The translations under genes and the position numbers were made by a program. Below the pieces are notes generated by a model, which searched no databases, had not been told where the DNA came from, and saw only the letters and a program-made list of their open reading frames with translations. From positions 64,561 to 128,560 of the forward strand of contig JBFLZW010000031.1 of NCBI GenBank assembly GCA_040755755.1: 64,000 bases of DNA, given 5' to 3'. Shown here piece by piece: positions 3,134 through 47,488 of the stretch (positions are counted from its first letter, which is position 1; every line of letters starts with the position of its first letter). The stretch comes from a bacterium. GTDB taxonomy: Bacteria; SZUA-182; DTGQ01.

Positions 3134-3151
3134 GGCATGTACTATCCTTCA

Positions 3152-4075: not shown

Positions 4076-4106
4076 CGATCGCTTTTCGAGCCAGCGGTTT
4101 GCTTGT

Positions 4107-6383: not shown

Positions 6384-8375
6384 ATGCCTGATGAAGGAAG
6401 AAAAAGAGTCAGTATCGAGGGGGTCAAGCCGGAAATCGACGGCGGACGTTTTCCAATTAAAAGAGTTGCCGGAGAAAAGGTCATCGTGCAGGCGGATATC
6501 TTCGCCGATGGGCATGACTCGATTTCAGCCAATCTTTTATACCGCAAAGGAGCTGAAACCGACTGGCAGGAGACTCCCCTGCAATTCCTGGTCAATGACC
6601 GGTGGCAGGGAGAATTTGTGGTTGACGGTCCGGCTGTCTATTTCTACACGATCGAAGGCTGGATCGATCACTTCAAAACCTGGCAGAAAGACCTGAGAAA
6701 GAAATTCGAGGCCGGACAGGACTTACGGGTAGATATCCTCATCGGTATCGAACACCTTGAATCGGCCGCGAAGAGGGCTCCGGCGAGCGAAGCCGCAAGG
6801 CTCCTCGAATTTGCCGGTATTTTCAGAAACGCGACGGATGTTCAGACAGTGGTCTTGGCCGCTCTTGGCCGTGAGCTTGGCGAATTGATGGCCCAAAATC
6901 CCGACAAAAAATTGTCTACCCGCTACGGGCGGGAGCTCGAGGTTGTGGTCGATCGAAAGCGCGCTCTGTTCAGCTCCTGGTATGAGCGGTTTCCCCGCAG
7001 TTGTTCCCCGCAGCCTGATCGTCCGGGAACCTTGCGGGATTGTGAGCAGCTCATTCCGGAAATAGCCAAAATGGGCTTTGATGTTTTCTACCTTCCTCCC
7101 ATTCATCCGATATCCGAAACCAGCCGCAAAGGCAGAAACAATTCGCCGAACGCCAGTCCAGGTGATGTCGGCAGCCCCTGGGCTATCGGATCAAAGGAAG
7201 GGGGGCATCGGGCGATTCACCCTCAGCTTGGGACGATGGAGGATTTTGAACGGCTGCTCAGGAGGGCTGAAAGCTTTGGAATAGAGATCGCCATGGATCT
7301 GGCCTTCCAGTGCGGCTGCGACCATCCTTACGTTCAGGAGCACCCTGAGTGGTTCAGATGGCGGCCTGACGGCACGGTTCAGTATGCCGAGAATCCTCCC
7401 AAAAAGTATGAGGATATCCTCCCGCTCAATTTTGAAACAGCCTCCTGGCAGATGCTCTGGGAGGAGCTGAAGGGGGTGGTGCTGTTCTGGATCGGGAAGG
7501 GAGTGCGGATCTTCCGGGTCGATAATCCCCATACCAAACCCTTTCCCTTTTGGGAGTGGCTGATCAGGGAAATTAAAAGGGATTACCCCGATGTTATTTT
7601 CCTGGCCGAGGCTTTCACCCGGCCAAAGCTCATGCAGCGCCTGGCCAAGCTTGGATTTACGCAAAGCTACACCTATTTCACCTGGAGAAACAGCCGGCAT
7701 GAGTTGACCGCCTATCTCGAGGAACTGACTAAGACCGACATGGCCGAGTATTTCAGGCCGAACTTCTGGCCCAACACACCGGACATTCTCCCTGAGCACC
7801 TCCAGTATGGGGGAAGGCCGGCCTTTATCATCAGGCTTGTTCTGGCGGCAACCCTTTCTTCCAGCTATGGCGTCTACGGGCCTGCCTTTGAGCTGTGCGT
7901 GAGCGAGGGCCTGCCAGGCAGGGAAGAGTATGCGAACTCGGAAAAATACGAGATTAGATACTGGGGGGATTTGAGCCGGCAGGCGGGAAACCTGCGGGAT
8001 TATCTGCGCAAGATCAACAGTATCAGGAGGGATAACCCGGCTCTGCAGACTACCCGGAACCTGCAATTTTACGAAACGGAGAACGAGTATCTCATTGCCT
8101 ATGGGAAGGCCACCGATGACCTTTCCAATATCGTCCTGGTGGTGGTCAACCTCGACCCCTTCCATATCCAGTCCGGATGGGTAAAACTTCCCCTCTCCCA
8201 ATTCGGCATAGGCCCGGACCAGCCATACCTGGTTCACGATCTGATCAGCGAGATCAAATATATCTGGTATGGCGAGAGAAATTATATAGAGCTTAATCCC
8301 AATCTTCTTCCTGCACATATTTTGAGAATCAGGAAGAGGCTGAAAAGAGAAACCGACTTCGATTATTTCGTGTGA
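6384..8375 (+). CDS. glgE: alpha-1,4-glucan:maltose-1-phosphate maltosyltransferase
   Basis: 663 aa. N-terminus RFPIKRVAGEKVIVQADIFADGHD and GH13 core (FRVDNPHTKPFPFWEWLI) are typical of GlgE. Followed by treS and glgB. Confidence 0.9.
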   Translation: MPDEGRKRVSIEGVKPEIDGGRFPIKRVAGEKVIVQADIFADGHDSISANLLYRKGAETDWQETPLQFLVNDRWQGEFVVDGPAVYFYTIEGWIDHFKTWQKDLRKKFEAGQDLRVDILIGIEHLESAAKRAPASEAARLLEFAGIFRNATDVQTVVLAALGRELGELMAQNPDKKLSTRYGRELEVVVDRKRALFSSWYERFPRSCSPQPDRPGTLRDCEQLIPEIAKMGFDVFYLPPIHPISETSRKGRNNSPNASPGDVGSPWAIGSKEGGHRAIHPQLGTMEDFERLLRRAESFGIEIAMDLAFQCGCDHPYVQEHPEWFRWRPDGTVQYAENPPKKYEDILPLNFETASWQMLWEELKGVVLFWIGKGVRIFRVDNPHTKPFPFWEWLIREIKRDYPDVIFLAEAFTRPKLMQRLAKLGFTQSYTYFTWRNSRHELTAYLEELTKTDMAEYFRPNFWPNTPDILPEHLQYGGRPAFIIRLVLAATLSSSYGVYGPAFELCVSEGLPGREEYANSEKYEIRYWGDLSRQAGNLRDYLRKINSIRRDNPALQTTRNLQFYETENEYLIAYGKATDDLSNIVLVVVNLDPFHIQSGWVKLPLSQFGIGPDQPYLVHDLISEIKYIWYGERNYIELNPNLLPAHILRIRKRLKRETDFDYFV

Positions 8376-8384
8376 GGAAGGGAA

Positions 8385-11300
8385 TTGAAATCACGAAAAG
8401 CCGCTTACCTTGAAGAGGATCCCCTCTGGTATAAGGATGCGATCATTTATGAGCTCCATGTAAAGACCTTTTACGATAGCAATAATGACGGCATCGGAGA
8501 TTTTCAGGGACTTACCCAGAAACTCGACCATCTGGCAAACCTTGGAATTACGGCTGTCTGGCTTCTCCCCTTTTATCCATCTCCCCTGAAGGATGATGGC
8601 TATGATATAGCCAATTATTTTGAAGTCCATCCTGATTATGGCACGCTGCGGGACTTCAAGGAATTTCTCAAGGAAGCCCATCGGCGGGGAATACGGGTCA
8701 TTACCGAGCTTGTTTTAAACCACACTTCCGATCAGCATGACTGGTTTCAGAAGGCCCGAAGAGCAAAACCCGGCTCCAGATGGAGAAATTATTATGTCTG
8801 GGATTCACCGGAAAAGTATAAAGATGCCAGAATTATCTTTAAAGACTTCGAAACTTCCAACTGGGCCTGGGACCCTGTAGCCAAGGCTTACTACTGGCAT
8901 CGTTTTTACTCCCATCAGCCGGATCTGAATTACAATCATCCGCATGTCCAGAAAAGCATGCTGCGGGTCATCGACTACTGGTTGAATATGGGTGTGGACG
9001 GGATGCGCCTTGATGCCGTTCCCTACCTTTATGAACGGGAGGGAACCAATTGCGAAAATCTGCCGGAAACCTATGAGTATCTGAAGAAACTGAGGTCGCA
9101 TATCGACAGCAAGTTCAGAGGCAGGATGCTTCTGGCCGAGGCCAACCAGTGGCCGGAAGATGCGGTCAACTATTTCGGAAATGGTGACGAGTGTCATATG
9201 GCCTTTCATTTTCCGCTGATGCCCAGGATGTTCATGGCCATCCGGATGGAAAACCGGTATCCAATCATGGAAATCCTCAATCAGACCCCGGCGATCCCTG
9301 ATGTCTGTCAGTGGGCGCTCTTTTTGAGGAATCACGATGAGCTTACCCTCGAAATGGTGACCGACGAGGAGCGGGACTATATGTACAGGATCTACGCCAA
9401 AGACCGCACGGCACGGATTAACCTCGGCATTCGAAGGCGTCTGGCACCGCTCCTTGGCAATGACAGAAAAAAGATAGAATTGATGAATTTTCTGCTCCTT
9501 TCCCTGCCGGGGACCCCGGTTATCTATTACGGGGATGAAATCGGCATGGGAGACAACTACTATCTGGGAGACAGAAACGGCGTCAGGACCCCGATGCAGT
9601 GGAGTGGAGACAGAAATGCCGGTTTCTCGCGGGCCAATCCCCAGAAACTCTACCTGCCGGTGATCATTGATCCTGAATACCATTATGAAGCCGTCAATGT
9701 GGAAAACCAGGACAGAAGCCAGGCTTCCCTGCTATGGTGGATGAAGCATTTTATCGCCATGAGAAACAATTTCAAGGCCTTTGGCCGGGGAACGATCGAA
9801 TTCCTCTTTCCGGAGAATATGAAGGTTCTGGCCTTTATCCGGCAGTACCAGGATGAGAACATCCTGGTGGTCGTGAACCTGTCACGGCACCCGCAGCTCG
9901 TCGAGCTTGACCTGGCAAAGTATGCCGGGTATGTGCCGGTGGAGGCTTTCAGCAAGAATTCATTCATTGTTATTAAAAATCATCCCTACGCCCTGACCCT
10001 TGGATCGTATGGCTACTACCTGTTTCTGCTCCAGAGGCAGGAGGAGGGGGGGGCAGTCCGGACCCCGAGGATCCTGCCGGAAATCAAGGTAAGCTGGAAG
10101 TGGGAGATGGTTTTGGCCGGAAAAGCGGGGGAGGAGCTTGAGCGTGAAGTATTGCCGCTTTTCCTGAAAAGTGCCCGGTGGTTCGGAGGGAAGACCCGTC
10201 TGGTCCAGCAGGTCAAGATAGCCAGGGATATCCAGCTCGGCAAGGGCAGCCAGGTCACGCATCTTTTGTTCCTCGATGTTCAGTACACGGAAGGGGTGTC
10301 CGACCTCTATCTTCTTCCCCTCTCTTTTGCTCAGGCAGATCAGGCGCAAAAGATCCTGGAGGAGTCGCCTCAGGGGGTGGTGGCCAGGCTCGTGGTCGAT
10401 GAGACGAGGGGAATCATCTATGACGGCATCTATAACGAGAAATTCCGCCAGGATCTTCTGATGATGATTGTCAGACGGTATAAAATCCGGGATAAGGAAG
10501 GGGAGGTGGCTGCCTATCCGGGGAAGGACCTTCGGGGTTCCATCAGGGGAATGCAATTACCTTCCGAATCCCAGGTACTGCGGGGTGAGCAGAGCAACTC
10601 GTCGATTATCTACGGGAACAGGTTTTTTCTCAAGCTGTTCAGGCGTCTTGAGGAGGGAATGAACTCGGAGCTCGAAATGCTGTGGTTCCTGACTGAAAAG
10701 CTATCCTGTCCTCATGTGCCGCCGTTTGCAGGAGTGATCGAGTATCGAAAGCCGCATGCCGAATCGACCATTCTGGCCATTCTTCAAGGGCTTGTGCCCA
10801 ATGCAGGGGATGCCTGGAGCTATACTCTCGATGCTCTGGAGAGGTATTTTACCGGTGTCCTCTCGAAGTCAGGCGAGATTCAGGAGGTCCCGAAGGCTCC
10901 AGCTTCGCTCCTTGAGATAGCTTATCAGGAAATCCCTCCGCTCATGCAGGAGCTCATCTCGGGTTATCTTGAAATGATAAGCCTGCTGGGCACAAGAACC
11001 GGAGAGCTTCACCTTGCTCTGGCCTCGGACCCGGAAGATCCGTTTTTTGCGCTGGAACCCTATTCACTCCTTCACCAGAGGGCCATTTATCAGTCACTGC
11101 AAACCGGGGCTCAGCGGACTTTTCATCTTCTGGAAAAGAGCCTTGCACATCTGCCTGAGGATGAAAGGAACCTGGTGCAGGAGATCCTGAGCTTAAAGAA
11201 ACAGGTGGTCAGTCTGTTCAAAGCCATTCTCCAGAAGAAGATCTCCGGCGGGAAGATCAGGATCCACGGGGATTACCATCTGGGCCAGGTGCTCTACACG

Positions 11301-11714
11301 GGAAAGGACTTTGCGATCATCGATTTTGAAGGCGAGCCGGCCCGGTCGTTGAGCGAGCGGCGATTGAAAAGGTCCCCCCTGCGGGATATAGCCGGTATGC
11401 TCAGATCGCTCCACTATGCAGCCTATACCGCTCTCTTGAAAAAAGCGCTGATCAGGGCTGAAGACAGGGTACAGCTTGAGCCCTGGGCTGACCTGTGGTA
11501 CAAATATACGGGGGGTGCTTTCCTGAGATCGTATCTCGATACGGTCAAAGATGCACCCTTTATCCCCCGGGAAAAGAACGAGCTGCAGATCATGCTCAAT
11601 GCCTTTCTCCTCGATAAGGCAATTTACGAGGTCAGATATGAATTGAACAACCGGCCAGAATGGCTGGCCATTCCCTTGCGGGGGATAAAACACCTGCTGG
11701 AGGAAAACAAGTAG
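8385..11714 (+). CDS. treS: trehalose synthase fused to maltokinase (TreS-Pep2/Mak fusion)
   Basis: 1109 aa. The N-terminal ~590 aa are GH13 TreS (YKDAIIYELHVKTFYDSNNDGIGDF, GMRLDAVPYL, NHDELT). The C-terminal ~500 aa are a maltokinase-like phosphotransferase (IHGDYHLGQVLYTGKDFAIIDFEGEP). Confidence 0.9.
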   Translation: MKSRKAAYLEEDPLWYKDAIIYELHVKTFYDSNNDGIGDFQGLTQKLDHLANLGITAVWLLPFYPSPLKDDGYDIANYFEVHPDYGTLRDFKEFLKEAHRRGIRVITELVLNHTSDQHDWFQKARRAKPGSRWRNYYVWDSPEKYKDARIIFKDFETSNWAWDPVAKAYYWHRFYSHQPDLNYNHPHVQKSMLRVIDYWLNMGVDGMRLDAVPYLYEREGTNCENLPETYEYLKKLRSHIDSKFRGRMLLAEANQWPEDAVNYFGNGDECHMAFHFPLMPRMFMAIRMENRYPIMEILNQTPAIPDVCQWALFLRNHDELTLEMVTDEERDYMYRIYAKDRTARINLGIRRRLAPLLGNDRKKIELMNFLLLSLPGTPVIYYGDEIGMGDNYYLGDRNGVRTPMQWSGDRNAGFSRANPQKLYLPVIIDPEYHYEAVNVENQDRSQASLLWWMKHFIAMRNNFKAFGRGTIEFLFPENMKVLAFIRQYQDENILVVVNLSRHPQLVELDLAKYAGYVPVEAFSKNSFIVIKNHPYALTLGSYGYYLFLLQRQEEGGAVRTPRILPEIKVSWKWEMVLAGKAGEELEREVLPLFLKSARWFGGKTRLVQQVKIARDIQLGKGSQVTHLLFLDVQYTEGVSDLYLLPLSFAQADQAQKILEESPQGVVARLVVDETRGIIYDGIYNEKFRQDLLMMIVRRYKIRDKEGEVAAYPGKDLRGSIRGMQLPSESQVLRGEQSNSSIIYGNRFFLKLFRRLEEGMNSELEMLWFLTEKLSCPHVPPFAGVIEYRKPHAESTILAILQGLVPNAGDAWSYTLDALERYFTGVLSKSGEIQEVPKAPASLLEIAYQEIPPLMQELISGYLEMISLLGTRTGELHLALASDPEDPFFALEPYSLLHQRAIYQSLQTGAQRTFHLLEKSLAHLPEDERNLVQEILSLKKQVVSLFKAILQKKISGGKIRIHGDYHLGQVLYTGKDFAIIDFEGEPARSLSERRLKRSPLRDIAGMLRSLHYAAYTALLKKALIRAEDRVQLEPWADLWYKYTGGAFLRSYLDTVKDAPFIPREKNELQIMLNAFLLDKAIYEVRYELNNRPEWLAIPLRGIKHLLEENK

Positions 11715-11748
11715 CGGGGAGAAAAAATGAGAAAGGAGAGAGAGGGCG

Positions 11749-13671
11749 ATGGATATCGGGAGCCTTTTGACTGAGAATGATATTTACCTGTTCAGGGAAG
11801 GGAGCCACTTTCGGCTCTATGATAAGCTCGGCTCTCATCTGGTAACCGTTGACGGAGTCAGCGGAGCGTACTTTGCGGTCTGGGCTCCGAATGCCGAGGG
11901 GGTTACGGTGATGGGAAAATTTAATGGCTGGAACCCGGATTCCCATTCTCTGGCCTTGAGAATGGATGGCTCAGGGATCTGGGAGGGCTTTATTCCCGGT
12001 ATCGCTCATGGTGCTCCGTACAAGTATCATATCAGATCACGCTATCGGCATTACCGGGTCGATAAAGGAGACCCTTATGCCTTCCGCTGGGAGCCTGCGC
12101 CGGAAACAGCCTCGGTGGTCTGGGACCTCAAGTATGCATGGGGAGATGGCGAGTGGATGAAAAACCGCGCCGGGGCCAATGCCTTCAATGCACCCATGTC
12201 TATCTACGAGGTGCATCTTGGATCGTGGAGACGGGTTCCGGAAGAGGACGGGCGGTTTCTTACCTACCGGGAAATGGCTGAAAGCCTGGCTGATTACGTC
12301 GAGAAGATGGGTTTTACCCATGTCGAGTTTCTGCCGGTCATGGAGCATCCCTTCTATGGTTCCTGGGGATATCAGATCGTGGGCTTCTTTGCTCCGAGCA
12401 GCAGGTTCGGCACTCCGCAGGACTTCATGGCGATGGTCGATTACCTCCATCAGCGGGGGATAGGAGTTATCCTTGACTGGGTGCCTTCGCATTTTCCCGA
12501 TAATATCCAGGGGCTGGTCTTCTTTGACGGCACTCACCTGTACGAGCATGCAGACCCACGGAAAGGATTTCATCCCGAATGGAAGAGCTATATCTTTAAC
12601 TATGGCCGCCAGGAAGTCAGGGCATTCCTGATCAGTGCCGCACTCTTCTGGTTTGACAAGTATCATATCGACGGTCTCAGGGTGGATGCCGTAGCCTCCA
12701 TGCTCTACCTGGACTATGCGCGCAAATGGGGTGAATGGATCCCGAACGAATTCGGCGGCAAGGAGAATATCGAGGCCATCAGCTTCATCAAACGGCTGAA
12801 CGAGGCCATATACAGCGCATACCCCGATGTTCAGACCATTGCCGAAGAGTCGACCGCCTGGCCCATGGTTTCCCGTCCGACCTATATCGGCGGTCTGGGA
12901 TTTGGTCTGAAGTGGAATATGGGCTGGATGCACGATACCCTGTCCTACTTTTCCAAGGACGCCGTTTACCGCAAGTACCATCAGGGCCAGCTCACGTTCA
13001 GTATCTGGTACGCCTTCTGGGAAAATTTCGTGCTTCCTCTCTCCCACGATGAGGTGGTATACGGGAAAGGCTCGCTGATCGGGAAAATGCCGGGGGACGA
13101 CTGGCAGAAATTCGCCAACCTGCGGCTGTTATTCGGATATATGTATGGTCATCCGGGCAAGAAGCTTCTGTTCATGGGGGGAGAGTTTGCCCAGTGGCGG
13201 GAGTGGAACCACGATCTCAGCCTTGACTGGCACCTCCTCGAATATTTCCCTCATCAGGGAGTGCAAAAGTGGGTCGCGGACTTAAACCGCATGTATGCCA
13301 CTGAACCGGCCCTTCACGAGCTGGACTTTTCCAGTGAAGGATTCGAATGGGTGGATTTTCACGATGCCGAATCGAGCGTCATCAGCTTCATCAGAAAAGG
13401 GAAAACCACCGGCGACCTGATCATGGCAGTCTGCAATTTCACCCCCGTGCCCCGGGAAAACTACCGGCTGGGAGTGCCGTGGAGCGGCATCTGGAAAGAG
13501 ATCCTGAACAGCGATGCCAGGGTCTATGGCGGAAGCGGCCACGGAAACTTTGGCCAGGTTGAGGCCACACCGCTTCCTGCACACGGAAAAAGCTGCTCCC
13601 TATCCCTGCTCCTGCCTCCCCTGGGCATTATTTTCCTCAAGGGTGAGGAGAGTGAGAAATTTCAGTTGTAA
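11749..13671 (+). CDS. glgB: 1,4-alpha-glucan branching enzyme
   Basis: 640 aa. GH13_9 motifs ([39 protein letters not shown]). Confidence 0.9.
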
Positions 13672-20581: not shown

Positions 20582-20681
20582 CTAGAAACAGTAGGAATAG
20601 GGAATAAAGAAAAGTTTATATGAAGTCATGTTCAAACATTCAACCATTGACTTACAAAAATTAGAAAAAGGAGGATTAAAA

Positions 20682-20897
20682 ATGGTTGATAGCATTGATG
20701 TCCATGATTTACCGGAAGAGGAAGTTAAATTTATTCAGGAATTCACAGAGTTTATAAGACAGAAAGTAAGGAGCAATAAAGTGCAAAAAGGAGAAGAAGG
20801 GATAGAAGAAGAGATAACAGAAGAAAAAGCCCTTACCGCCCATTCTTCAAATGTAATTGGTAAACTTACGAGAAGAGAAATCTATGACTACCTCTAA
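20682..20897 (+). CDS. putative antitoxin of a VapBC-like pair
   Basis: 71-aa acidic ORF with strong RBS (AAAGGAGGA). 14-nt overlap with the downstream PIN gene. Low-GC islet. Confidence 0.45.
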   Translation: MVDSIDVHDLPEEEVKFIQEFTEFIRQKVRSNKVQKGEEGIEEEITEEKALTAHSSNVIGKLTRREIYDYL

Positions 20898-21327
20898 TCT
20901 TGCACTCTTGGATAGTAACATTCTCATTTATAGACATCAGGCTCTTTCGGAGTTTCACACCAGGACAAGAGCACTGTTAAGGAAAGGATTTAAAGGTGAT
21001 TTGCTTCTTGGTATCTGTCCTCAGGTTCTCAATGAATTTTATGCGGTAATTACCAATCCCAGACGGGTGACCGATCCTATATCGCCAGCAGAGGCGGTTA
21101 GAGAAATTGAGACATACATTAAAGCTAAAAATATCATAAAAGTATATCCTAAAGAGGATATCTTTGATGTAACTATCCATCTCTTGAAAACCTATAAGAT
21201 CAACGATAGAGATATTTTTGACCTGCAATTAGTGGCTACGATGATCTCTAATGATATTACCTGCCTTTATCCATATAACCAAAATGATTTTTCCAGATTT
21301 AAAGAGATAGAAGTATTAACACCGTAG
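20884..21327 (+). CDS. vapC: PIN-domain toxin (VapC-like)
   Basis: LALLDSNILIYR at the N-terminus, a conserved acidic residue in DIFDLQLVATM, ~145 aa. Confidence 0.7.
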   Translation: MTTSNLALLDSNILIYRHQALSEFHTRTRALLRKGFKGDLLLGICPQVLNEFYAVITNPRRVTDPISPAEAVREIETYIKAKNIIKVYPKEDIFDVTIHLLKTYKINDRDIFDLQLVATMISNDITCLYPYNQNDFSRFKEIEVLTP

Positions 21328-21496: not shown

Positions 21497-23281
21497 CTAA
21501 CAGCTCCACTGCCCGCGGTTTCTGATGGCCTGGAAGCGGTGCCAGATCTCAATGAGGAACCAGTTTTTCAGGATCCATCCGATATTCATCCGCAGCAGGC
21601 GGGTGGGCCATTCGAGCTCTTTTTTCTCACAGATGGTGTTTTCACTCAGCTTGCGGACCCTGGCTTTGAGCTTCTGCATTTGCCGGTCCCGCTCGGCATC
21701 GTCGGATATCAGCATGATGTCGTCGATCTCCTTCATGGCCTTGATGGCCAGTTGCATCCGCTTCTCCGTCCGCTCGGCCTTTTTCGGATTTATCAGGCCA
21801 TAGCGGGCCTTCAGGCGGTTGAGGATCATTCCGGCCTCATAGGAGCTGTCGACGATCTCGCTTCTGGTCATCCACCTGGTTTCGTAGCTCAAGACATATT
21901 TCCAACTGGGGCTTTCCATTGCCCGGCGATGCTCTTCCACCGTGCGGCAGAGGATTTTGTAGCCGAATTTTTCGGGATCCTCGTAGGCCTCGCTCCCCGG
22001 ATCGATAAAGGGGGCATAGGGAGAGATAAAGGGGATCAGCCGTCTGGTATGGCCAAATCGTTCCAGCAACAGGCGGCAGTAGTCAACGGTGTTCAGAACC
22101 GACTGATAGGTCTGCTTTGAAAGGCCGATCATGAAAAAAAGGTCGATGCGCCGGCAGCCAAGGCGCAGCGAGGTATCGATCATCCGCTCCAGTTCCTCGT
22201 TGCCGTAGGGGCGGCCAAAGGTCCTTCGGACCTCTTCATCGTGGGATTCAGGGGACATTTCGATATTGAAGTTTGGCACTGCATCGGCTATCATTTCGAG
22301 GATATCGTCGGCGGGCGGGACAAAGAACTCCACGGCTACGGGATTGCGGATTTTCTGTTTCTTCAGCTCCTTCAGCAGCCGCAGGGCATACTGACGGCCC
22401 GGCTGCATCATGTCGCCGATGATGATGATCGGGGCATTCAGGTTGTTGTCGATGGTCTTCATGTCCCTGGCCAGCAATTCAGGATCCCGGTAGGCGGGCT
22501 TGGGGCGGTTGCAGTTTTTCCGGAAGGCGTAAGCCGCTCCTCCGCAGGTCCGGCAGGTGTGGGTGCAGCCCCGGACATTGAAAACCGCCGTAGCAGGATA
22601 GTTCAGCCAGTTCTGGTAGGGAGTATATCCGTGGAGGTCACGGTATCGCATGACCTTTTTCATGATATGGGAATAATCGATTTTAATGTCGTCAAGATCG
22701 GCCGGTACATTGGTCAGGGGATTGACCTGCACCTTTCCCTGACTGTCCCGCCAGGTGAGGTTGGGAATATGGTCAACCTTGGGGGCAGTGTGGCCATCGG
22801 CTTCCTTGAGCGCCGAGATGAGCTGGCGCAGCGGCTCCTCGGTCGAGTCTCCCCGCATGACGTAGTCGATCTGGGGATAGCAGCGGATCAGTTCTTCATG
22901 GAAGTAGGTGGAAGAAAGCCCTCCGAAGATAACCGGTGTTGCGGGATGGTATTTTTTTACAATCTCAGCCAGAGCAAGACTCCCCTGGACATGGGGCATC
23001 CAGTGCAGGTCGATACCGAAGATGCGGGGATGGAGGTTTTTAATCTCCTCTTCCACATTGTATCGTTTGCTTCGCAGCATCTTCAGGGCGATGTTGATGA
23101 TCCGGACATGGAATCCGAACCGGCTGAGGTATTCGGAAATGCTGGTAAAGCCGATCGGATACATCTCAAAAACCGGTGTCGAAGGAACCAGATCGCTGAT
23201 GGGTCCAAAGAGAATGGCTTTTTCTCGAAAATCATAAACGGTTGGCGGATGAAGCAATATCAAATCTGCTTCCTGTCTCAT
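21497..23281 (-). CDS. cobalamin(B12)-binding radical SAM protein (class B rSAM), function unknown
   Basis: 594 aa. N-terminal B12-binding-like domain (ADLILLHPP...PIGFTSISEYL...IFGG). CTHTCRTCGG matches the CxxxCxxC radical SAM cluster motif. The ATG overlaps the selB stop (ATGA). Confidence 0.8.
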   Translation of the reverse strand: MRQEADLILLHPPTVYDFREKAILFGPISDLVPSTPVFEMYPIGFTSISEYLSRFGFHVRIINIALKMLRSKRYNVEEEIKNLHPRIFGIDLHWMPHVQGSLALAEIVKKYHPATPVIFGGLSSTYFHEELIRCYPQIDYVMRGDSTEEPLRQLISALKEADGHTAPKVDHIPNLTWRDSQGKVQVNPLTNVPADLDDIKIDYSHIMKKVMRYRDLHGYTPYQNWLNYPATAVFNVRGCTHTCRTCGGAAYAFRKNCNRPKPAYRDPELLARDMKTIDNNLNAPIIIIGDMMQPGRQYALRLLKELKKQKIRNPVAVEFFVPPADDILEMIADAVPNFNIEMSPESHDEEVRRTFGRPYGNEELERMIDTSLRLGCRRIDLFFMIGLSKQTYQSVLNTVDYCRLLLERFGHTRRLIPFISPYAPFIDPGSEAYEDPEKFGYKILCRTVEEHRRAMESPSWKYVLSYETRWMTRSEIVDSSYEAGMILNRLKARYGLINPKKAERTEKRMQLAIKAMKEIDDIMLISDDAERDRQMQKLKARVRKLSENTICEKKELEWPTRLLRMNIGWILKNWFLIEIWHRFQAIRNRGQWSC

Positions 23282-25209
23282 GGTGCTTCCCTTCTTTTTT
23301 TCAAAATTCTTTTATCCCCCAGTCTCATAGTCAAATTCGAAGTGTCGAAATATTCGAGCAGAGCAATAGCGTACTTTCTGGAAAATCCGAATAAATCCTT
23401 AAACTCGGCTACCGAGATATCAGTTTTGTGCTGAAGATAGCTCTGCAGCTTCTGCTGGATCTGCGACAGGGCCTGCTGATGAAATAACAGTCCTTCTTTC
23501 AGCTTGATCAATGTGCCTTCGTCGATCAGGTGCTGGATCAGTCTGGCAACATCGATGCCGGACGCATGGCAGGTCTGTGCCACTTCATCGAGGCCCGGAG
23601 GCTGATAGCCTGCCTGGCGGCACATGTCCAGGATTTTGGCTTTCTGTTTTTCCTCCTCCGGGGTCAATCTGATCTGGTGAGTAGACAGGCTCAGGGTTTT
23701 CTCCTGGACAATGATTTTCCCCTGCTCCAGCAGCGAGGAAATGATCCGGGCATACAGCCGGGAATCAAGGTCCGGATGCAGGCGGACTTTCAGCTCCTCC
23801 CTGGACATTCCCGATTTCAGGGCAAACCGCTGGTGAAAGCTGGTCAAGGTGTCAATTGCCGCACTCACCAGGCCGTGGAAGACCTCCTGATGAATGACCC
23901 ATTGGTCGAGCGGATCGATGACAACAATCCGCTGCTTTGCCTGCAAATGTCCAAGATGACCGGCTATTCTGTCCTGATCGAGATTGAGGCGGGTTGTCAG
24001 ACGGGCATTGTTGATTCCCTGGATTCCCGCCTGACGGACGATGAATTCAAGGCGCGTCAGATCATCTCCCTCTTCCAGAATACGGAGCCCAGAAAGGACC
24101 GCCGCATCAGACCGCCGGTGCCGGGATGGAAGGTTGTCGATGATGTTTCCGCCTCCGATGGTGATGACCGGAGAATAGGAGCGCACCACAAAGCGGTCTT
24201 TGGCCATCAGGGCCAGGGGGGATTCGAGCTGGAATTGAACCAGGGCCTCCTGACCGGGTGCAAGCTCCTCCTCCTTGTCGAGCAGGACCGCTCTGGCCAG
24301 CACCTCCGATGTTCCGGCATGAAACCGCAGGCGGGCCCGGTTCTTCAGCGGATGAGGAGCGGACGGGAGAAGGGAAATTCGCCCGTCGAGAAGATAGGAG
24401 GCCTGCAAATGGGAAGGCAGTGATACCACATCCCCGCGGGTCAGGTCTGCCTTTTCCACGCCATGCAGGTTAATGGCCACCCGCTGTCCGGCCAGGGCCT
24501 CTTCCACCGACTGGTTATAGACCTGAATTCCCCGGATCTTGGCCTGTTTCCCGCCGGGGAATATTTCAACGGTCAGGCCCTTTTTCAAAGTCCCCGATAA
24601 GAGCGTACCGGTAACTACCGTCCCGAATCCTTTCATGGTGAATATCCGGTCAACCGGCAGCCGGCAGATACCTCCCGGATTCCGGGGCGAAACGCTTTTG
24701 GCCAGTTCTTCAAGGCCCTTGAGCAGAGCCGGGATCCCCTGGCCGGTCGTGGCCGAGACCGGAAAGATGGGGGCGTTTTCCAGGAAGGATTCCCGGACAA
24801 AACTCCTGACATCATCAAGGACCAGCTCCAGCCACTCCGGATCAACCATGTCTGTCTTGGTGACCACCACGATCCCCTTCTGGACCTGGAGCAGACGGCA
24901 GATATCGAAGTGCTCGCTGGTCTGGGGCATGACCCCTTCATCAGCGGCGATAATCAGCATCACCGCATCGATGCCGGTCACTCCGGCCACCATATGCCGC
25001 ACAAACCGCTCATGACCCGGCACATCGACAATGCCAAGGCGCTCTCCATCCGGCAGGTCCAGATGGGCAAATCCCAGCTCGATCGTGATTCCCCGCTCTT
25101 TTTCCTCCTTCAGCCTGTCCGTGTCAATGCCGGTCAAGGCCCGAACCAGGGTCGTTTTCCCATGATCAATGTGCCCGGCGGTCCCCAGGATAATCCACTT
25201 AGAGTCCAT
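23278..25209 (-). CDS. selB: selenocysteine-specific translation elongation factor
   Basis: GTPase motifs [22 protein letters not shown]. Long C-terminal winged-helix extension (~640 aa total). Start taken at MDSKW. Adjacent to selA. Confidence 0.9.
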
Positions 25210-25307
25210 CCCAAAGCTCCATTCCAAATAAAGAAAAGACACCACACAGACACAGAGACACAGAGAAAAGCACAGGATGTCGCGGTGTCTTTATCTTTTT
25301 CAAGGTA

Positions 25308-26750
25308 TCACCTCGCATCGCTTCCCCACTGTTCGAGAATTTGTCTGCCTGCCTGGATAATCTCCGGCACATCCTCATCCTGAATGGTCCGCAGGCTCAA
25401 AAGAAACCGTCCATGATTGATGCGCCCCAGAACAGGAGGCTGATTCAGGCGAAACCGCTCCTCGAGCTGGTTGATTTCTTTTCCGGATGAGGAGATGGCC
25501 ACCGAAAGGGAAGGAATGTTGTGCAGGGGAAAGGAGCCGCCGCCCACCTGGGCATCGTCATCGACCATCTCGATACTGACAGTATCATCATCATGCCGGT
25601 CTGAGGCCAGACCTTCCAGTATCCGTCTCCCCCGCTCCTCAAGCTGCTGACGGGAGGCGGTGATCATGCGCAGGGTGGGAATTTTCTGCAGAACGTCCGG
25701 TTCCCGGTACAGCTTGAGCGTACTCTCAAGAGCGGCCAGGGTCATTTTGTCAGGCCGCACAGCCCTGGTCAGAGGATTTTTCCGCAGAAGTCCGGCATAT
25801 TTTCCCCTGCACAGGATAATCCCTGCCTGCGGCCCGCCCAGGAGCTTATCGCCGCTGAAGGTTACAATCTCTGCCCCCTGCTGAATGATCCGGGAAACAA
25901 GGGGCTCATCCAGCCCGTAAGGGGAAAGGTCGGCCAGCATGCCGCTTCCAAGGTCGCAGATGACGATCAGCCCCCGTTCCTTACCCAGGTGAACCAGTTC
26001 CGGAAGGCTTGTTTCTTCCGTGAAGCCCACAATCCGGAAATTACTGGGGTGTACTTTCAGAATGGCTGCACTGTCTGATGTAATCGCCTGCCGGTAATCC
26101 TCGATGCGGGTTTTATTGGTGGTGCCGACCTCCACCAGCCTGGCCCCTCCCTTTTTCATAACCTCCGGAACCCGGAAAGATCCGCCGATTTCTACCAGCT
26201 CTCCCCGGGAAACGATTACTTCCCGGGATTCGGCCAGGGTATTGAGAACCAGCAGAACCGCAGCCGCATTGTTATTTACCACCAGAGCATCTTCTGCGCC
26301 GGTCAGATGACAGAGCAGCCGGGTGATGGAATCCCCGCGCTTTCCCCTCTTTCCGGTCAGGAGGTCATACTCGAGGTTCGTGAAGCAACTGGCCGCCGTG
26401 GTAACCCTTTCCACCGCCTCACCGGCTAAAACAGCCCGTCCGAGATTGGTATGCAGAATAATCCCCGTAGCATTGATCACTCTTCCCAATTCAGCATACT
26501 GGGTTCTCTGAAAGTACAGGTCCACTTCTTCCAGGACAGAGCTTGCCGAAACCCGGAATTCTTCAAGCTCCTGCGGGCTGGTACAGGATAAAATCCACCC
26601 TCTTTTCCCATCAAGAACCTGCCTGATCCCCTCAACCAGAATCCACCTGGGATACCAGGAAAATCTTTCCCCCCTGGCTGCGGCATGGTGAAGGATTGAT
26701 TCCACCGAAGGTATCGATCTGAGGCAGGCAGTTTGCAATTCACTCAGCAT
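25308..26750 (-). CDS. selA: L-seryl-tRNA(Sec) selenium transferase
   Basis: 480 aa. PLP-fold core with GGSFRVPEV...GDKLLGGPQAGII, the SelA signature lysine region. Confidence 0.9.
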   Translation of the reverse strand: MLSELQTACLRSIPSVESILHHAAARGERFSWYPRWILVEGIRQVLDGKRGWILSCTSPQELEEFRVSASSVLEEVDLYFQRTQYAELGRVINATGIILHTNLGRAVLAGEAVERVTTAASCFTNLEYDLLTGKRGKRGDSITRLLCHLTGAEDALVVNNNAAAVLLVLNTLAESREVIVSRGELVEIGGSFRVPEVMKKGGARLVEVGTTNKTRIEDYRQAITSDSAAILKVHPSNFRIVGFTEETSLPELVHLGKERGLIVICDLGSGMLADLSPYGLDEPLVSRIIQQGAEIVTFSGDKLLGGPQAGIILCRGKYAGLLRKNPLTRAVRPDKMTLAALESTLKLYREPDVLQKIPTLRMITASRQQLEERGRRILEGLASDRHDDDTVSIEMVDDDAQVGGGSFPLHNIPSLSVAISSSGKEINQLEERFRLNQPPVLGRINHGRFLLSLRTIQDEDVPEIIQAGRQILEQWGSDAR

Positions 26751-26895
26751 ACAAGCCTGTAACAGTCAGATAATTAATTCATAAGGTGCCGGTAAATGTC
26801 AGTAATTACTTTTGGGACTATTCGTCTTATCTATAAAGGTATCACAGCCCGGCCAAAATCTCAAGGCTTGATTTGGAAGTCCCTGGAAAGTCTCA

Positions 26896-27963
26896 TCAGG
26901 CATCCGAGCGGCTTTCGCGCTCCGGCGGCATCAAAATATGATGCTTTTTCATGAAATATCCCAGGTTCCTTCGGTCAATTCCCAGCAGCTTGGCTGTTCT
27001 GCTTTTAACCCAATTGGCCCGGTCAAGGGCATTGAGGATTATGATTCTCTCGTACATCAATAACTGGTTTCGTAAATTAAGATCCTTGGCCAGCAGCTTC
27101 CTGTCCATCGGGATGCTTTCAGTCGGAGAGACCGCAGGCTGGTGATTCTCCCTGATATGGGCAGGAAGAATATCCGGATATATTTTATCCCTGCTTTCGA
27201 TAATCATGGCATTCTCGATAACATTTTTCAATTCCCGGATATTGCCCGGCCAGTCATACTTTACGAGCAGTTCCATAGCCTCGCTGGAAACTCCCTTCAC
27301 TTTAGTCTCCATTTCATTGCTGTTATGCTGAATGAAATGCTCCAGCAGGGAAGGGATATCCTCACGCCGATCTCTCAGGGGAGGAAGAAAAATAGTAATG
27401 ACGCTCAGCCGGTAATAGAGGTCTTCGCGGAAGGTTCCCTTTTGAGCGGCATCCTTGAGAATGACATTGGTCGTGGCGATAACCCGGACATCCACCTTAA
27501 TGGTTTTACTGCTTCCCACCGGCACGATCTCGTCTTCCTGGAGCACACGCAACAGCTTGGCCTGTCCGGCCAGCGGCATATTTCCAATTTCATCGAGCAG
27601 TATGGTCCCTTTATTGGCCAGCTCAAACCGGCCCTTTCGATCCGACAGGGCACCGGTATAGGATCCCTTCACATGACCGAACAGTTCACTTTCCAGCAAT
27701 GTCTCGCTTAAAGCCGCGCAGTTCACCTTGATAAAGGGCCGCCCATTCCGTAAACTGTGCTTATAAATCGCATTAGCCACCACTTCCTTGCCTGTTCCGC
27801 TCTCGCCCTGAACCAGTACTGTTGACTTTGTCTTGGCAATGATTCCAATCAGGCGGCAAATCTCTTTGATCTTCTCGCTCTTACCGATGATATCTGCTTG
27901 AACGTAATCCTGACCCATAATCAATACATCCCCCCGATCAATGTGAACAGGTTCCAGTTTCAT
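26896..27963 (-). CDS. sigma-54-dependent transcriptional activator lacking an N-terminal sensory domain (PspF-like architecture)
   Basis: 355 aa. AAA+ motifs GESGTGKE, GSYTGA, ESELFGH. C-terminal HTH (TAKLLGIDRRNLGYFMKKH). No receiver or PAS region. Confidence 0.85.
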   Translation of the reverse strand: MKLEPVHIDRGDVLIMGQDYVQADIIGKSEKIKEICRLIGIIAKTKSTVLVQGESGTGKEVVANAIYKHSLRNGRPFIKVNCAALSETLLESELFGHVKGSYTGALSDRKGRFELANKGTILLDEIGNMPLAGQAKLLRVLQEDEIVPVGSSKTIKVDVRVIATTNVILKDAAQKGTFREDLYYRLSVITIFLPPLRDRREDIPSLLEHFIQHNSNEMETKVKGVSSEAMELLVKYDWPGNIRELKNVIENAMIIESRDKIYPDILPAHIRENHQPAVSPTESIPMDRKLLAKDLNLRNQLLMYERIIILNALDRANWVKSRTAKLLGIDRRNLGYFMKKHHILMPPERESRSDA

Positions 27964-28304
27964 AAGGGATCTTTCTCGCGCACCTCCATAAGGTGAGCAA
28001 ATCCTATGCCAGCTTAAATTTTATCCCCCCCGCTCATTTTTATGCCCATAGGTGACTATAATTCTTCAGACAATCTATCCGACCTCATGAGGCTGCACGG
28101 CGCTCCAGACAACGGGAGAGAGCCGCCTGGCATGAAATAGATTTCATATATGAAAATATTTTCATACTAGTTCAGAAATAGTATATTTCCATTCATAGTG
28201 GCATTTTTACGAACTCACGGCTATCTTATCTGTTGATTTTCTGATCTCGATACGATAAACTAGAGTATTCTGATAGTATACTTTTTTCCCTTAACGCGAG
28301 GAGC

Positions 28305-28862
28305 ATGAAGTCGAGTATGGAAGAAATAATTCAACTTGATCCGATCATCCAGCCATCGCCAGACCAATGGTATGGCGTGCATACCCGATCTCGTCATGAG
28401 CAGGCGGTTTACGAGCGACTGACAAGTAAATCCATCCATACCTTTCTCCCCAAAATGGAGGTCTGGAGTGCGCGAAAGGACAGGCAAAAGCGGATTAGAG
28501 TGCCGATGTTTCGGGGGTACCTCTTTATCCGGGCCAACCTGGAAAACCGGCTCTGGCTTACTGTCCTGCAAACTCCGGGAGTCGCCCGGATCATCAGTAG
28601 CAACGGCAAGCCGGTACCTATCCCGGAAAACCAGATTTCCTCGATCCAGACCATTCTGGAAAACGATACGGTCGTCACTCCCTATCCTTATTTGAATATT
28701 GGCGAAAAGGTACGAATTGTGGCCGGCCCCCTTAAGGGGGTGGAAGGAATTCTTCAGCGATTTAAGTCGAATAAACAAAGACTTATTCTCTCGGTAGACC
28801 TTCTTCAGCAGTCAATCTGTGTTGAATTGAATACCATTGAAGTAGAGCCGATTAATTTCTAA
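28305..28862 (+). CDS. specialised NusG paralog (UpxY/LoaP-like transcription antiterminator)
   Basis: NGN domain (WYGVHTRSRHEQAVYERL...VPMFRGYLFIR) plus KOW motif (GEKVRIVAGPLKGVEGIL). ~180 aa, shorter and more divergent than housekeeping NusG. Confidence 0.7.
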   Translation: MKSSMEEIIQLDPIIQPSPDQWYGVHTRSRHEQAVYERLTSKSIHTFLPKMEVWSARKDRQKRIRVPMFRGYLFIRANLENRLWLTVLQTPGVARIISSNGKPVPIPENQISSIQTILENDTVVTPYPYLNIGEKVRIVAGPLKGVEGILQRFKSNKQRLILSVDLLQQSICVELNTIEVEPINF

Positions 28863-35642: not shown

Positions 35643-36590
35643 TTAATTCCTCTTCTTTCTGGCCACTATTTCCCTGACGGCTTTAACGACCGCCTCAGCG
35701 GTCAGGCCATAATGGGTCAGCAGTTTTTCTGCATCTCCGGAAACTCCGAAGCTATCATTCAGGCCGATTCTTTTCAGGGGAACCGGGCATTGTTCTGAAA
35801 TGACTTCAGCCACCGCGCTTCCCAGTCCTCCAATAATCGAATGCTCTTCAGCGGTCACGATACAGCCGGTCTCCCGGGCTGCGGCCAGGATAGCCTGCTG
35901 ATCGATGGGCTTCAGGGTGGACATATTCAGGACGCGGACAGAAATGCCCTCGCTTTTCAGTATCTCGCTGGCCTTCAGTGCCCGGCTGACCATGACCCCA
36001 ATGGCGATCACGGTGGCATCGCTGCCATCTTCAAGCAGAGCGGCCTTTCCCTTCTGGAAAGTGTAGTCGGAACCCAAAACCACCGGGAACTTGCATCTGC
36101 TCAGCCGCACATAGACAGGGCTTTTGTCATTGACCAGATATTCCAGCACCTTCTCCGTTTCAATTCCATCTGCGGGTACGATAATATTCATATTGGGCAG
36201 ACTCCGCATCAGGGCAATATCCTCATTGGCCTGGTGGGTAGCGCTGTCTTCTCCCACGGTCACGCCTGCATGGGTGGCTACGATCTTAACGTTCTGCATG
36301 GAATAACAAAGAGATTGCCGGATCTGGTCCCAGGCCCTTCCGGTAGCGAAAACGGCAAAGGTGCTGACGAACGGAATCTTCCCGAAGGCAGCCAGCCCGG
36401 CTGCCGTGGCAATCATATCCTGCTCGGCGATTCCGATATTAAAAAACCTGTCCGGAAAGGCCCTGGCAAATTTTTCGGTCCGGGTAGAACAGGAAAGGTC
36501 TGCGTCGAGCACGACAATGTCAGGATTCTGCTGTCCCAGTCTCACCAATACGTCTCCATAAACATCACGAGTACCTAAACTTTGACTCAT
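35643..36590 (-). CDS. transketolase, C-terminal (pyrimidine-binding) subunit
   Basis: FNIGIAEQDMI...VRLSR motifs of the split transketolase TktB. Confidence 0.9.
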   Translation of the reverse strand: MSQSLGTRDVYGDVLVRLGQQNPDIVVLDADLSCSTRTEKFARAFPDRFFNIGIAEQDMIATAAGLAAFGKIPFVSTFAVFATGRAWDQIRQSLCYSMQNVKIVATHAGVTVGEDSATHQANEDIALMRSLPNMNIIVPADGIETEKVLEYLVNDKSPVYVRLSRCKFPVVLGSDYTFQKGKAALLEDGSDATVIAIGVMVSRALKASEILKSEGISVRVLNMSTLKPIDQQAILAAARETGCIVTAEEHSIIGGLGSAVAEVISEQCPVPLKRIGLNDSFGVSGDAEKLLTHYGLTAEAVVKAVREIVARKKRN

Positions 36591-36593
36591 AGC

Positions 36594-37448
36594 TCACCTC
36601 AACTCCAGTAATGCTTTTTCCAATTCCGCCTCGGTCGGCGCAACCCCATGATAGTGCACTTTGCCTTCCATAAAGGAAACCCCCTTGCCTTTGACCGTGT
36701 GGGCAACGATCAGCGAGGGCTTGCCCTTGACCTGTTCACACCGCTCAAATGTCGAGAGGAGAGCCGACAGGTCATGGCCATCGACCTCAAAAACCTGCCA
36801 GCCGAAAGATTCCCATTTTGGGGCTATGGGCTCGATATTCTTTATTTGGGACAGTGAACCATCAATTTGCAGTTTATTGGCATCGATGATGCCGCAGACA
36901 TTATCGAGCTTATAATGGGCCGCGGTCATGGCCGCCTCCCATATCTGGCCCTCCTGAGTCTCTCCGTCCCCCATTAAAACATATATCCTGGCCTCGGATT
37001 TGTTCAGTCTGGCAGCCAGGGCCATTCCATTGGCTACGGATAATCCCTGCCCCAGGGAGCCGGTTGAAATTTCGACCCCCGGAGTGGTCAGATTAAAGGG
37101 ATGCCCTTGCAGCATCCCGCCGAGTTTGCGAAGGTTGTCGAGCTCTGCCTTGTCGAAGTAGCCGAGTCGGGCCAGAGTGGCATACAGGGCCGGCGCTCCG
37201 TGTCCTTTCGACAGGACGAACCGGTCGCGGCCGGGCCATCGGGGATTTTTCGGATCATGGCGTAACTTCACCATGTACAGTGCGACCAGAATCTCGATGA
37301 TGGATAAAGATCCCCCCGTATGTCCGGATCCGGCGCGGGTTAACATGCGCAAAACTTCGATGCGTAATTGACGGGCCGTCTCTTTCAATTCTATAATTTT
37401 GCTCTCCGGCAATGATGACATAAATTCTTCCTCTTTACTAGGGCTCAA
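36594..37448 (-). CDS. transketolase, N-terminal (TPP-binding) subunit
   Basis: GSGHTGGSLS...GDGETQEGQIWEAA TPP-binding motifs. 4-nt gap to the C-terminal subunit gene. Confidence 0.9.
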   Translation of the reverse strand: MSPSKEEEFMSSLPESKIIELKETARQLRIEVLRMLTRAGSGHTGGSLSIIEILVALYMVKLRHDPKNPRWPGRDRFVLSKGHGAPALYATLARLGYFDKAELDNLRKLGGMLQGHPFNLTTPGVEISTGSLGQGLSVANGMALAARLNKSEARIYVLMGDGETQEGQIWEAAMTAAHYKLDNVCGIIDANKLQIDGSLSQIKNIEPIAPKWESFGWQVFEVDGHDLSALLSTFERCEQVKGKPSLIVAHTVKGKGVSFMEGKVHYHGVAPTEAELEKALLELR

Positions 37449-44521: not shown

Positions 44522-45250
44522 ATGCCTATGACAGTCTCATTTGGACAATCAGATCCTGGCCTCAGACGCTCGAATAATGAAGATGCTTTCATCATCATAT
44601 CCGAAGCGGACCTTCTGGCAGTGGCCGATGGAATGGGCGGGGCAGCGGCTGGTGAGGTGGCCAGCCGGATATTTATTGAATCCGCCTCGGCACTTTCCGG
44701 CGGTGCGAAGTGTCAATCCGAGCAGGAAGCCCTTGTCAGGGTCCAGGATATCTTCAGATCAGCCAATGAAAAAATTATTAACCATGCCAGGCAGAACCCT
44801 CAGTGCCGGGGAATGGGGTGTACCGCCGAAGTCATTGTCTTCACCAGCCAGGGTTATGTTCTTGGCCATGTAGGAGACAGCCGCACCTATCTGCTGCGAG
44901 CGGGACAACTGAAACGATTGACGCATGATCACTCTGTGGTCCAGGAGCAGATCGACCAGGGCCTCATCACGCCAGAGGATGCCAGAAAACATCCCCTCAA
45001 AAGTGTTATCCTCAGAGCTGTAGGTGTCAACGAACAGTTGGCCCTTGACCTGATACGGGATAAAACCGTTCCCGGCGACCTTTTTCTCCTCTGCTCCGAC
45101 GGTCTGACAGATATGATTGACGATTCCTTCATCAAGGATATCCTTTCCCGTCCCCTGACTCTTTCTCAAAAGGGAACCCAGTTAATCGAGGCTGCCAAAT
45201 CAGCCGGGGGGTATGACAACGTAACGGTAGTTCTCGGTGAAGTAAAGTGA
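44522..45250 (+). CDS. PP2C-family Ser/Thr protein phosphatase
   Basis: RRSNNEDAF...VADGMGGAAAGE...GDSR...CSDGL motifs of PPM phosphatases. Confidence 0.85.
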   Translation: MPMTVSFGQSDPGLRRSNNEDAFIIISEADLLAVADGMGGAAAGEVASRIFIESASALSGGAKCQSEQEALVRVQDIFRSANEKIINHARQNPQCRGMGCTAEVIVFTSQGYVLGHVGDSRTYLLRAGQLKRLTHDHSVVQEQIDQGLITPEDARKHPLKSVILRAVGVNEQLALDLIRDKTVPGDLFLLCSDGLTDMIDDSFIKDILSRPLTLSQKGTQLIEAAKSAGGYDNVTVVLGEVK

Positions 45251-46204: not shown

Positions 46205-46217
46205 GACGGAAGTTAGC

Positions 46218-47450: not shown

Positions 47451-47483
47451 TGGTCAGTGGTCAGTGATCAGTGGTTAGTGGCT
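47449..47483. repeat. five tandem AGTGGTC-type heptamers (AGTGGTC AGTGGTC AGTGATC AGTGGTT AGTGGCT)
   Basis: Read directly. The first unit overlaps the kinase stop codon. A second array of the same heptamer is at 59121-59176. Confidence 0.6.
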
Positions 47484-47488
47484 GGAAT

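Follow-up and report, generated by a model that had tools for sequence, protein, structure and literature searches.

A selA-selB operon ending in an overlapping B12-type radical SAM gene, and the neighborhood links of family TIGR04190 to selenocysteine machinery and menaquinone genes

The selA-selB-radical SAM operon

The DNA analyzed here, termed the window, is a 64,000 nt stretch of a bacterial genome (GTDB lineage Bacteria; SZUA-182; DTGQ01; assembly GCA_040755755.1, contig JBFLZW010000031.1, positions 64,561 to 128,560 of the forward strand). On its minus strand, the selenocysteine insertion genes selA and selB are followed by a gene for a radical S-adenosylmethionine (SAM) protein of family TIGR04190, with a sigma-54 activator gene at the head of the block. 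Relatives of the radical SAM gene recur beside selenocysteine genes and beside menaquinone genes, and a role in menaquinone tailoring, tied only indirectly to selenium, is proposed with moderate confidence. The genes and their junction, in window coordinates, are:

26896 to 27963, minus strand: sigma-54 activator gene, 355 aa, Sigma54_activat domain match
25308 to 26750, minus strand: selA, L-seryl-tRNA(Sec) selenium transferase, TIGR00474 match
23278 to 25209, minus strand: selB, selenocysteine-specific elongation factor, TIGR00475 match
21497 to 23281, minus strand: radical SAM gene, 594 aa, TIGR04190 protein with B12-binding and radical SAM domains
23278 to 23281, minus strand: ATGA overlap of the selB stop and the radical SAM start, read from the sequence

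All four genes lie where a preliminary description of this DNA had placed them, in the order activator, selA, selB, and radical SAM, with three genes tightly packed and two overlapping. The ATGA shared by selB and the radical SAM gene was likewise confirmed and is kept in seven other loci (L001, L002, L003, L081, L082, L083, and L086; such labels denote the compared loci); the ATGA at 23281-23278 is preceded by AAGAAGGGAAG, with a purine-rich ribosome-binding site ahead of it. The overlap is read as translational coupling of the radical SAM gene to selB, and by itself it says little because 4-nt overlaps are frequent in operons. The selB reading frame covers 23278-25245 with a GTG at 25245, and an in-frame ATG at 25209, which yields the canonical N-terminus, is the likely start. 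With this ATG, the spacing from the selA stop to selB is 98 nt, in agreement with the 60-100 nt given initially.

Both sel products are ordinary selenocysteine-insertion proteins. SelA was a full-length equivalog match to TIGR00474 (563.7 bits against a cut-off of 267.9; residues 10-467 spanning positions 1-452 of the 455 in the profile) and also matched the Pfam families SelA (E = 5.9e-146) and Se-cys_synth_N. SelB was an equivalog match to TIGR00475 (383.4 bits against 242.25) with the domains GTP_EFTU, GTP_EFTU_D2, Beta-barrel_SelB, SelB-wing_2, and SelB-wing_3, the winged helices being those that bind the selenocysteine insertion sequence (SECIS). The order selA then selB on one strand, both full-length equivalogs, resembles the E. 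coli selAB-type operon. In the canonical organization, however, sel genes cluster with selD, selC, or formate dehydrogenase genes, whereas no tRNA-Sec (selC), selD, formate dehydrogenase, or evident selenoprotein gene was found in the 64-kb window, and unlike canonical sel operons the one described here ends in an apparently coupled B12-type radical SAM gene and is headed by a sigma-54 activator and its predicted promoter. The selA-selB-radical SAM operon is a new form of sel gene organization whose proteins belong to known families.

The identification of the last product as a B12-dependent radical SAM protein with a CTHTCRTCGG cluster and a B12-binding domain was borne out by a hidden Markov model search, which placed it in TIGR04190 (B12_SAM_Ta0216; 682.8 bits, cut-off 500, with a match over positions 1-529 of the 554 in the profile). 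The B12-binding domain (PF02310) lies at residues 36-148 and the Radical_SAM domain (PF04055) at 237-401; the cluster motif occupies residues 239-248, and C239, C243, and C246 were invariant in 18 sequences. Homologs in the other loci gave tblastn matches that were single continuous segments. A UGA-recoded selenoprotein was rejected, as it had been initially, since the gene stops at TAG and contains no in-frame TGA.

The best Foldseek matches of the AlphaFold2 model (predicted local distance difference test, pLDDT, 76; predicted template modeling score, pTM, 0.80) were TsrM (E = 4e-18), TokK, CysS, and MgmA (E up to 7e-14), all with probability 1.00 and query-normalized TM-scores of 0.46-0.55. 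Like the modeled protein, these enzymes have a Rossmann-type B12-binding domain at the N-terminus and, after it, a radical SAM core with CxxxCxxC; they differ from it in sequence, with an identity of only 12-15%. A sequence search against PDB chains gave no match, and a profile search against solved structures returned TsrM and TokK only as weak matches (E ~0.2-0.4). On the model, the protein has a class-B (cobalamin-binding-domain) radical SAM fold, for which cobalamin binding and methyl transfer are predicted. Some class-B-fold enzymes, for example AprD4, work without cobalamin. Enzymes of this fold that are not methylases include AprD4, BchE, and the archaeal Grs and Ted (10.1101/2025.10.20.683597 for Grs and Ted), and a role in quinone methylation has been speculated for the B12-radical SAM protein Slr0320 of Synechocystis (PMC8065906). 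Two homolog searches returned at least 6,445 and at least 7,862 relatives among up to 8,000 candidates each, and TIGR04190 is a large, uncharacterized family present in many anaerobic phyla. The literature search found no paper mentioning TIGR04190 or Ta0216 and none linking a B12-radical SAM protein to selAB or to MenA and MenG.

Selenium, menaquinone, and formate dehydrogenase neighbors in relatives

The compared set comprised 170 loci with relatives of the radical SAM gene at 49-98% identity, drawn from 80 species-representative genomes, 80 metagenome contigs obtained with a second-clade seed, and 10 contigs found by exact protein look-up. A selA, selB, or selD gene was present within 3.5 kb of the radical SAM gene in 78 of the 170 loci. 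Three gene orders occur among these, and most of the genes overlap or nearly abut. The preliminary description had tied its suggestion of a selenium-linked function to orthologs lying near selA, selB, or selD in other genomes, which they clearly do.

The first arrangement characterizes the window clade (64-100% identity), where selA-selB-radical SAM is complete in L001, L002, L081, L084, and L086, partial in L003, L082, and L083, and carries an inserted LysR gene in L004; the 4-nt overlap of selB and the radical SAM gene was maintained at 71-88% protein identity. The second, in about 70 loci from Syntrophaceae, Syntrophorhabdus, and other Thermodesulfobacteriota, has selA directly after the radical SAM gene, with blast matches 14-308 nt apart (mostly <70 nt) and called open reading frames (ORFs) that often overlap. 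The block there reads [fdhA(Sec)-fdhB-fdhE]-...-UshA-like (seleno)protein-radical SAM-selA-rluD-pgeF-...-tRNA-Sec, the tRNA-Sec lying a few kb 3' of radical SAM-selA. In Syntrophia-type loci (L008-L036 and L099-L161 types), the gene for the UshA-like (seleno)protein overlaps the radical SAM start by 4 nt and is a second selenium-related neighbor (e.g., L012:9054-9983, where the ORF portion beyond the presumed UGA scored 199 bits with NF041198). The third arrangement, in L041, is fdhA(Sec)-fdhB-fdhE-mobA-small radical SAM-radical SAM-selB-selD-x-cysteine desulfurase-selA(reverse)-tRNA-Sec. All sel-linked members except L041 fell in one large clade of a neighbor-joining tree, within which only the sister pair L006/L085, close relatives of the window, had adequate flanks and no sel gene nearby, having kept the radical SAM gene. 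The pairing of sel and radical SAM genes is not accidental and exceeds chance.

It is doubtful that the adjacency is merely inherited synteny devoid of functional meaning and kept once a promoter was shared. Such neutral hitch-hiking would fit the housekeeping genes rluD, pgeF, folK, and tal interleaved in the same conserved block (with rluD-pgeF between selA and tRNA-Sec as a parallel case), the change of family neighbors by phylum (moxR, MenA, or sel genes), and the position of nearly all sel-linked loci in one neighbor-joining clade, for which few independent events are needed. The linkage, however, outlasted changes of order (radical SAM-selA, selA-selB-radical SAM, and radical SAM-selB) and of both flanks, when the selA-rluD and formate dehydrogenase-radical SAM adjacencies were lost more often, and the 4-nt overlap was retained across the protein divergence given above.

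Menaquinone genes formed another recurrent context. In 18 of the 170 loci the radical SAM gene adjoins genes for MenA, MenG/UbiE, or a long-chain polyprenyl-diphosphate synthase; the metagenome-assembled genomes (MAGs) among these were labeled Aerophobetes (L047), Planctomycetota (L053), and Candidatus Subteraquimicrobium (L043), and the rest were metagenome contigs. The clade around L041 displays the cluster fdhA-fdhB-nrfD-fdhE-(mobA)-MenA-polyprenyl-diphosphate synthase-small radical SAM-TIGR04190 in L087, L089, L091-L095, L097, L047, and L053, with no sel genes there, and the prenyltransferase of these clusters is MenA (TIGR00751, 133 and 128 bits against a cut-off of 102). The gene for the small radical SAM protein (carrying DUF3463 and matching best the PTO1314 family and HpnH, each of these two below cut-off) precedes the TIGR04190 gene and often overlaps it (L041:6955-7863 and L087:6094-7008, also L047, L053, L088, L091-L095, and L097), its product being a possible two-enzyme partner of the TIGR04190 protein. 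A second clade (L110, L144, L150, L152-L154, L163, and L169) has a MenA-like gene directly 5' of the radical SAM gene; the L110 protein passed TIGR00751 (127.7 bits) and that of L144 fell below its cut-off (88.7 bits), though all best matches were MenA models. The gene order is MenA-MenG/UbiE-radical SAM in L150 (TIGR01934, 206 bits against 158) and MenG-radical SAM in L156, and in L043 polyprenyl synthase genes flank the radical SAM gene on both sides. The MenA and MenG neighbors of TIGR04190 point to quinones over tetraether lipids, the field of the archaeal enzymes Grs, Gmm, Cgm, and Ted.

As a separate observation in the second clade, an (R)-S-adenosyl-L-methionine hydrolase-like gene (DUF62-type, below cut-off) was located just 5' of MenA-radical SAM in L150:3362-4228, L163:8024-8926, L144, L154, and L169.

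A further context was moxR, found beside the radical SAM gene in 29 of the 170 loci, 11 of them from MAGs labeled Anaerolineae, Chloroflexia, or Anaerolineaceae (Chloroflexota) and the rest metagenome contigs. Across all contexts the proteins belong to one equivalog model, with TIGR04190 scores of 668-694 bits, and 135 of the 594 columns of a joint alignment were at least 90% identical over the sel-, men-, and moxR-linked classes. Only five class-specific positions distinguished sel-linked from men-linked members, three of which were conservative swaps (K/R, M/L, and I/L), and a neofunctionalized sel-linked subfamily was rejected on this basis. The TIGR04190 family is not selenium-specific.

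These results tell against the selenium-directed function that had been suggested at the outset, as the same family occurs in men and moxR clusters, persists without selAB in L006 and L085, and differs so little between classes. A direct role in the selenocysteine pathway, in which the enzyme would modify tRNA-Sec, SelA, SelB, or a selenoprotein (FdhA, for example) or would methylate or otherwise process a substrate or cofactor that contains selenium, is accordingly unlikely. It would account for the 78 sel-linked loci with their three gene orders and apparent translational coupling, and for the Syntrophia-type genes flanked on both sides by the UshA-like (seleno)protein and selA with tRNA-Sec nearby, where radical SAM-selA is the most invariant adjacency. 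Radical-SAM-type enzymes are also known to modify translation factors, as EpmB with EF-P and Dph2 with EF2. On the other side stand MenA-linked, moxR-linked, and other loci that have no sel gene within 10 kb and near-identical conserved residues, the loss of selAB at the locus in L006 and L085 with retention of the radical SAM gene, and the absence of TIGR04190 from the selenoproteome and selenium-trait papers and reviews in the literature search. Ta0216, the namesake of the family, is presumably a Thermoplasma protein; to our knowledge, Thermoplasma has no selenocysteine system, and it makes a methylated menaquinone. Put for the family as a whole, the claim that TIGR04190 acts directly in selenium biology, either by modifying tRNA-Sec, SelA, SelB, or a selenoprotein or by making a selenium- or methyl-bearing redox cofactor for the selenocysteine formate dehydrogenase, is a shade less probable still.

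Formate dehydrogenase genes connect the two contexts, lying within 9 kb of the radical SAM gene in 42 of the 170 loci and in both the sel-linked and the men-linked clades. In L013, L041, and L095 the FdhA frame contains a TGA at EHQARI-U-HS; L093 has no stop at that site. The enzyme might instead assemble or modify a periplasmic Mo/W formate dehydrogenase and not a quinone, with sel and men genes as satellites, in keeping with its position 3' of fdhE, mobA, tatA, and tatC in L041, L087, L089, L092, L093, and L095 and 3' of fdhA(Sec)-fdhB-fdhE in many Syntrophia-type loci. This is very improbable in view of MenA-radical SAM and MenA-MenG-radical SAM loci with no formate dehydrogenase nearby (L110, L144, L150, L163, and L169) and of the moxR-linked loci and the window clade, which also have none nearby.

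Regulation and surroundings of the operon

The further features around the operon are:

27996 to 28011, minus strand: predicted sigma-54 (-24/-12) promoter TGGCATAGGATTTGCT, 33 nt upstream of the activator ATG
28132 to 28166, minus strand: two adjacent palindromes, TATGAAAATATTTTCATA and ATGAAAT-CT-ATTTCAT, read from the sequence
25230 to 25298, minus strand: hairpin followed by a U-rich run between selA and selB (98-nt spacer), with a minimum free energy of -25.3 kcal/mol and a weak z-score of -1.37
23306 to 23334, minus strand: sigma-70-like site TTGACT-17-AAGAAT, 9/12 matches, within the 3' end of selB just 5' of the radical SAM start
28305 to 28862, plus strand: UpxY/LoaP/RfaH-type NusG paralog, NF033644 128.3 bits against a cut-off of 100

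The activator consists of a Sigma54_activat domain at residues 25-191 followed by an AAA lid and HTH_8, with Walker A motif GESGTGKE and a sigma-54 contact loop GSYTGA where the canonical form is GAFTGA. No domain precedes the AAA+ part, which bears out its description as sensor-less. The block had further been placed under a PspF-like activator, and the likeness extends to an AAA+ and helix-turn-helix architecture devoid of an N-terminal regulatory domain and to transcription divergent from the neighboring gene. PspF identity was rejected, however (TIGR02974 and NF008622, 275.7 against 443.55 and 242.5 against 529 bits), and the protein scored under the cut-off of every named equivalog. It differs from PspF also in that the divergent gene encodes the UpxY-type NusG paralog, that no pspA was seen in the neighborhood, and that the predicted sigma-54 promoter would drive the activator gene itself.

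Control of the block by sigma-54 stood up better than the PspF label. The promoter TGGCATAGGATTTGCT has one mismatch to TGGCAC-N5-TTGCW, and L001, L002, and L081 all retain its core GGCAT.GGA.TTGCT unchanged while the spacer around it diverges; because matches at the same stringency across the whole window were no more frequent than expected by chance, the call depends on this position and conservation. The two palindromes, ~120-170 bp upstream of the promoter and mostly kept in L001, L002, and L081 although their flanks diverge, are candidate sites for the enhancer-binding protein in a layout as expected of enhancers. No sigma-54 promoter was found directly 5' of selA at up to two mismatches, and no intrinsic terminator was predicted between the activator gene and selA. 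Promoter, activator, selA, selB, and radical SAM gene form a candidate single transcription unit, and one autoregulated sigma-54 transcript over all four genes would be the simplest reading. The hairpin between selA and selB may be a partial terminator or processing site; the spacer is specific to the window lineage because selA and selB abut or overlap in L081, L084, and L086. The sigma-70-like site may be an internal promoter within selB.

Only the window, L001, L002, and L081 have the activator at the head of the block; it is a lineage-specific addition, not a conserved part of the operon. It is absent 5' of selA in L086, where a divergent lysyl-tRNA synthetase gene occurs, and in L084, where a 487-aa protein with a weak B12-binding-domain match is encoded 5' of selA-selB-radical SAM (2991-4454). 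The NusG paralog, divergent from the activator gene and conserved in L001, L002, and L081, is a possible processive antiterminator of the activator-selA-selB-radical SAM transcript; tsaD follows it, 5' of the activator. An Rfam scan of the whole window detected tRNA-Thr only, and neither a cobalamin riboswitch nor any further known RNA turned up near the operon.

On its 3' side, the radical SAM gene of the window is met by a vapBC pair on the opposite strand (20628-21327). In nine loci of the window clade (L002, L004-L007, and L083-L086), including L006 and L085 that have no selAB, a Rieske, cytochrome b, and multiheme cytochrome c gene set converges on the radical SAM gene instead; this set is missing in the window. 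Elsewhere the window contains an alpha-glucan pathway set (6384-13671, plus strand; GlgE, TreS/maltokinase, and GlgB), a transketolase split into N and C halves as separate genes (35643-37448, minus strand), and genes for a PP2C phosphatase, a trypsin-like protease, a Ser/Thr kinase with a PEGA domain, and an AhpC/TSA-TPR protein (44522-49556, plus strand). Candidates for TGA read-through in the window were rejected as ordinary neighboring genes, namely GlgE with TreS, the split transketolase, and PP2C with the protease.

Menaquinone tailoring and the tie to selenium

The favored reading, held with middling confidence, is that the radical SAM protein is a menaquinone-tailoring enzyme that shares its operon with sel genes via a common tie to a selenocysteine-containing, quinone-linked formate dehydrogenase. 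Menaquinone tailoring is suggested because the gene recurs after MenA, MenG, and polyprenyl synthase genes, and an indirect selenium link because formate dehydrogenase operons lie near it in both sel-linked and men-linked clades. The enzyme would tailor menaquinone or its prenyl tail, with C-methylation, the default chemistry of class-B enzymes, as the proposed reaction, and would probably not act on a selenium compound. Sel genes would be gathered at the fdh locus wherever FdhA carries selenocysteine, and the radical SAM gene would be gathered there since formate dehydrogenase feeds electrons into the quinone pool. L041, with sel genes and the formate dehydrogenase cluster together, would represent an intermediate state; in Syntrophia-type genomes the men genes would have gone, leaving UshA-like selenoprotein-radical SAM-selA-rluD, and in the window lineage selA-selB-radical SAM would be a translationally coupled, co-transcribed remnant after loss or relocation of men and fdh genes. 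Co-expression would then serve a single module, formate-linked anaerobic electron transport. The preliminary description had named a shared regulatory need as the alternative to selenium-directed chemistry; this alternative is plausible and fits better, selenium-directed chemistry being the less likely reading.

Several points weigh against menaquinone tailoring with an indirect selenium link. Men and sel genes occurred together within 3.5 kb of the radical SAM gene in none of the 170 loci, and the window and all sel-linked loci were devoid of men genes. The set of 170 was not sampled at random but consists of the loci closest to two selected queries, and many belong to one phylum, so that the counts overstate independent events. 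In the Syntrophia-type arrangement, radical SAM-selA stays fixed while the 5' gene may be rho, suhB, patatin, or fdhE, and a purely indirect link explains less easily why radical SAM-selA was kept more faithfully within Syntrophia than formate dehydrogenase-radical SAM. Co-transcription is inferred, with a weak sigma-70-like site inside the 3' end of selB, and the assignment to quinones is an argument from gene neighborhood.

The known menaquinone ring methylases MenK and MqnK are radical SAM enzymes of class C and not class B, and methylated menaquinones in anaerobes are known to be made through MenK, MqnK, and MenK2 (class C, HemN-like). The tailoring role proposed here after MenA and MenG would be analogous to theirs. 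They differ in radical SAM class and have no B12-binding domain; the parallel is one of gene neighborhood and implies no homology.

The window locus led to two strong, previously unreported neighborhood signals for TIGR04190, the selenocysteine machinery and the last menaquinone steps. It also cautions that tight, conserved operon coupling can stem from a shared third partner, here formate dehydrogenase, and not from a shared pathway. Were the selenium link direct, the protein would be a new accessory component for a pathway thought fully enumerated (SelA, SelB, SelC, and SelD) and would supply a so far unrecognized step, accessory to the selenocysteine trait, in anaerobes of the Syntrophia type and related ones. 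If the quinone reading is true, the family would provide a route to modified menaquinones that depends on cobalamin and differs from that of the class C enzymes MenK and MqnK, with a bearing on formate-linked electron transport in syntrophs and other anaerobes. In both cases, the orphan family TIGR04190 gains two concrete, competing functional hypotheses.

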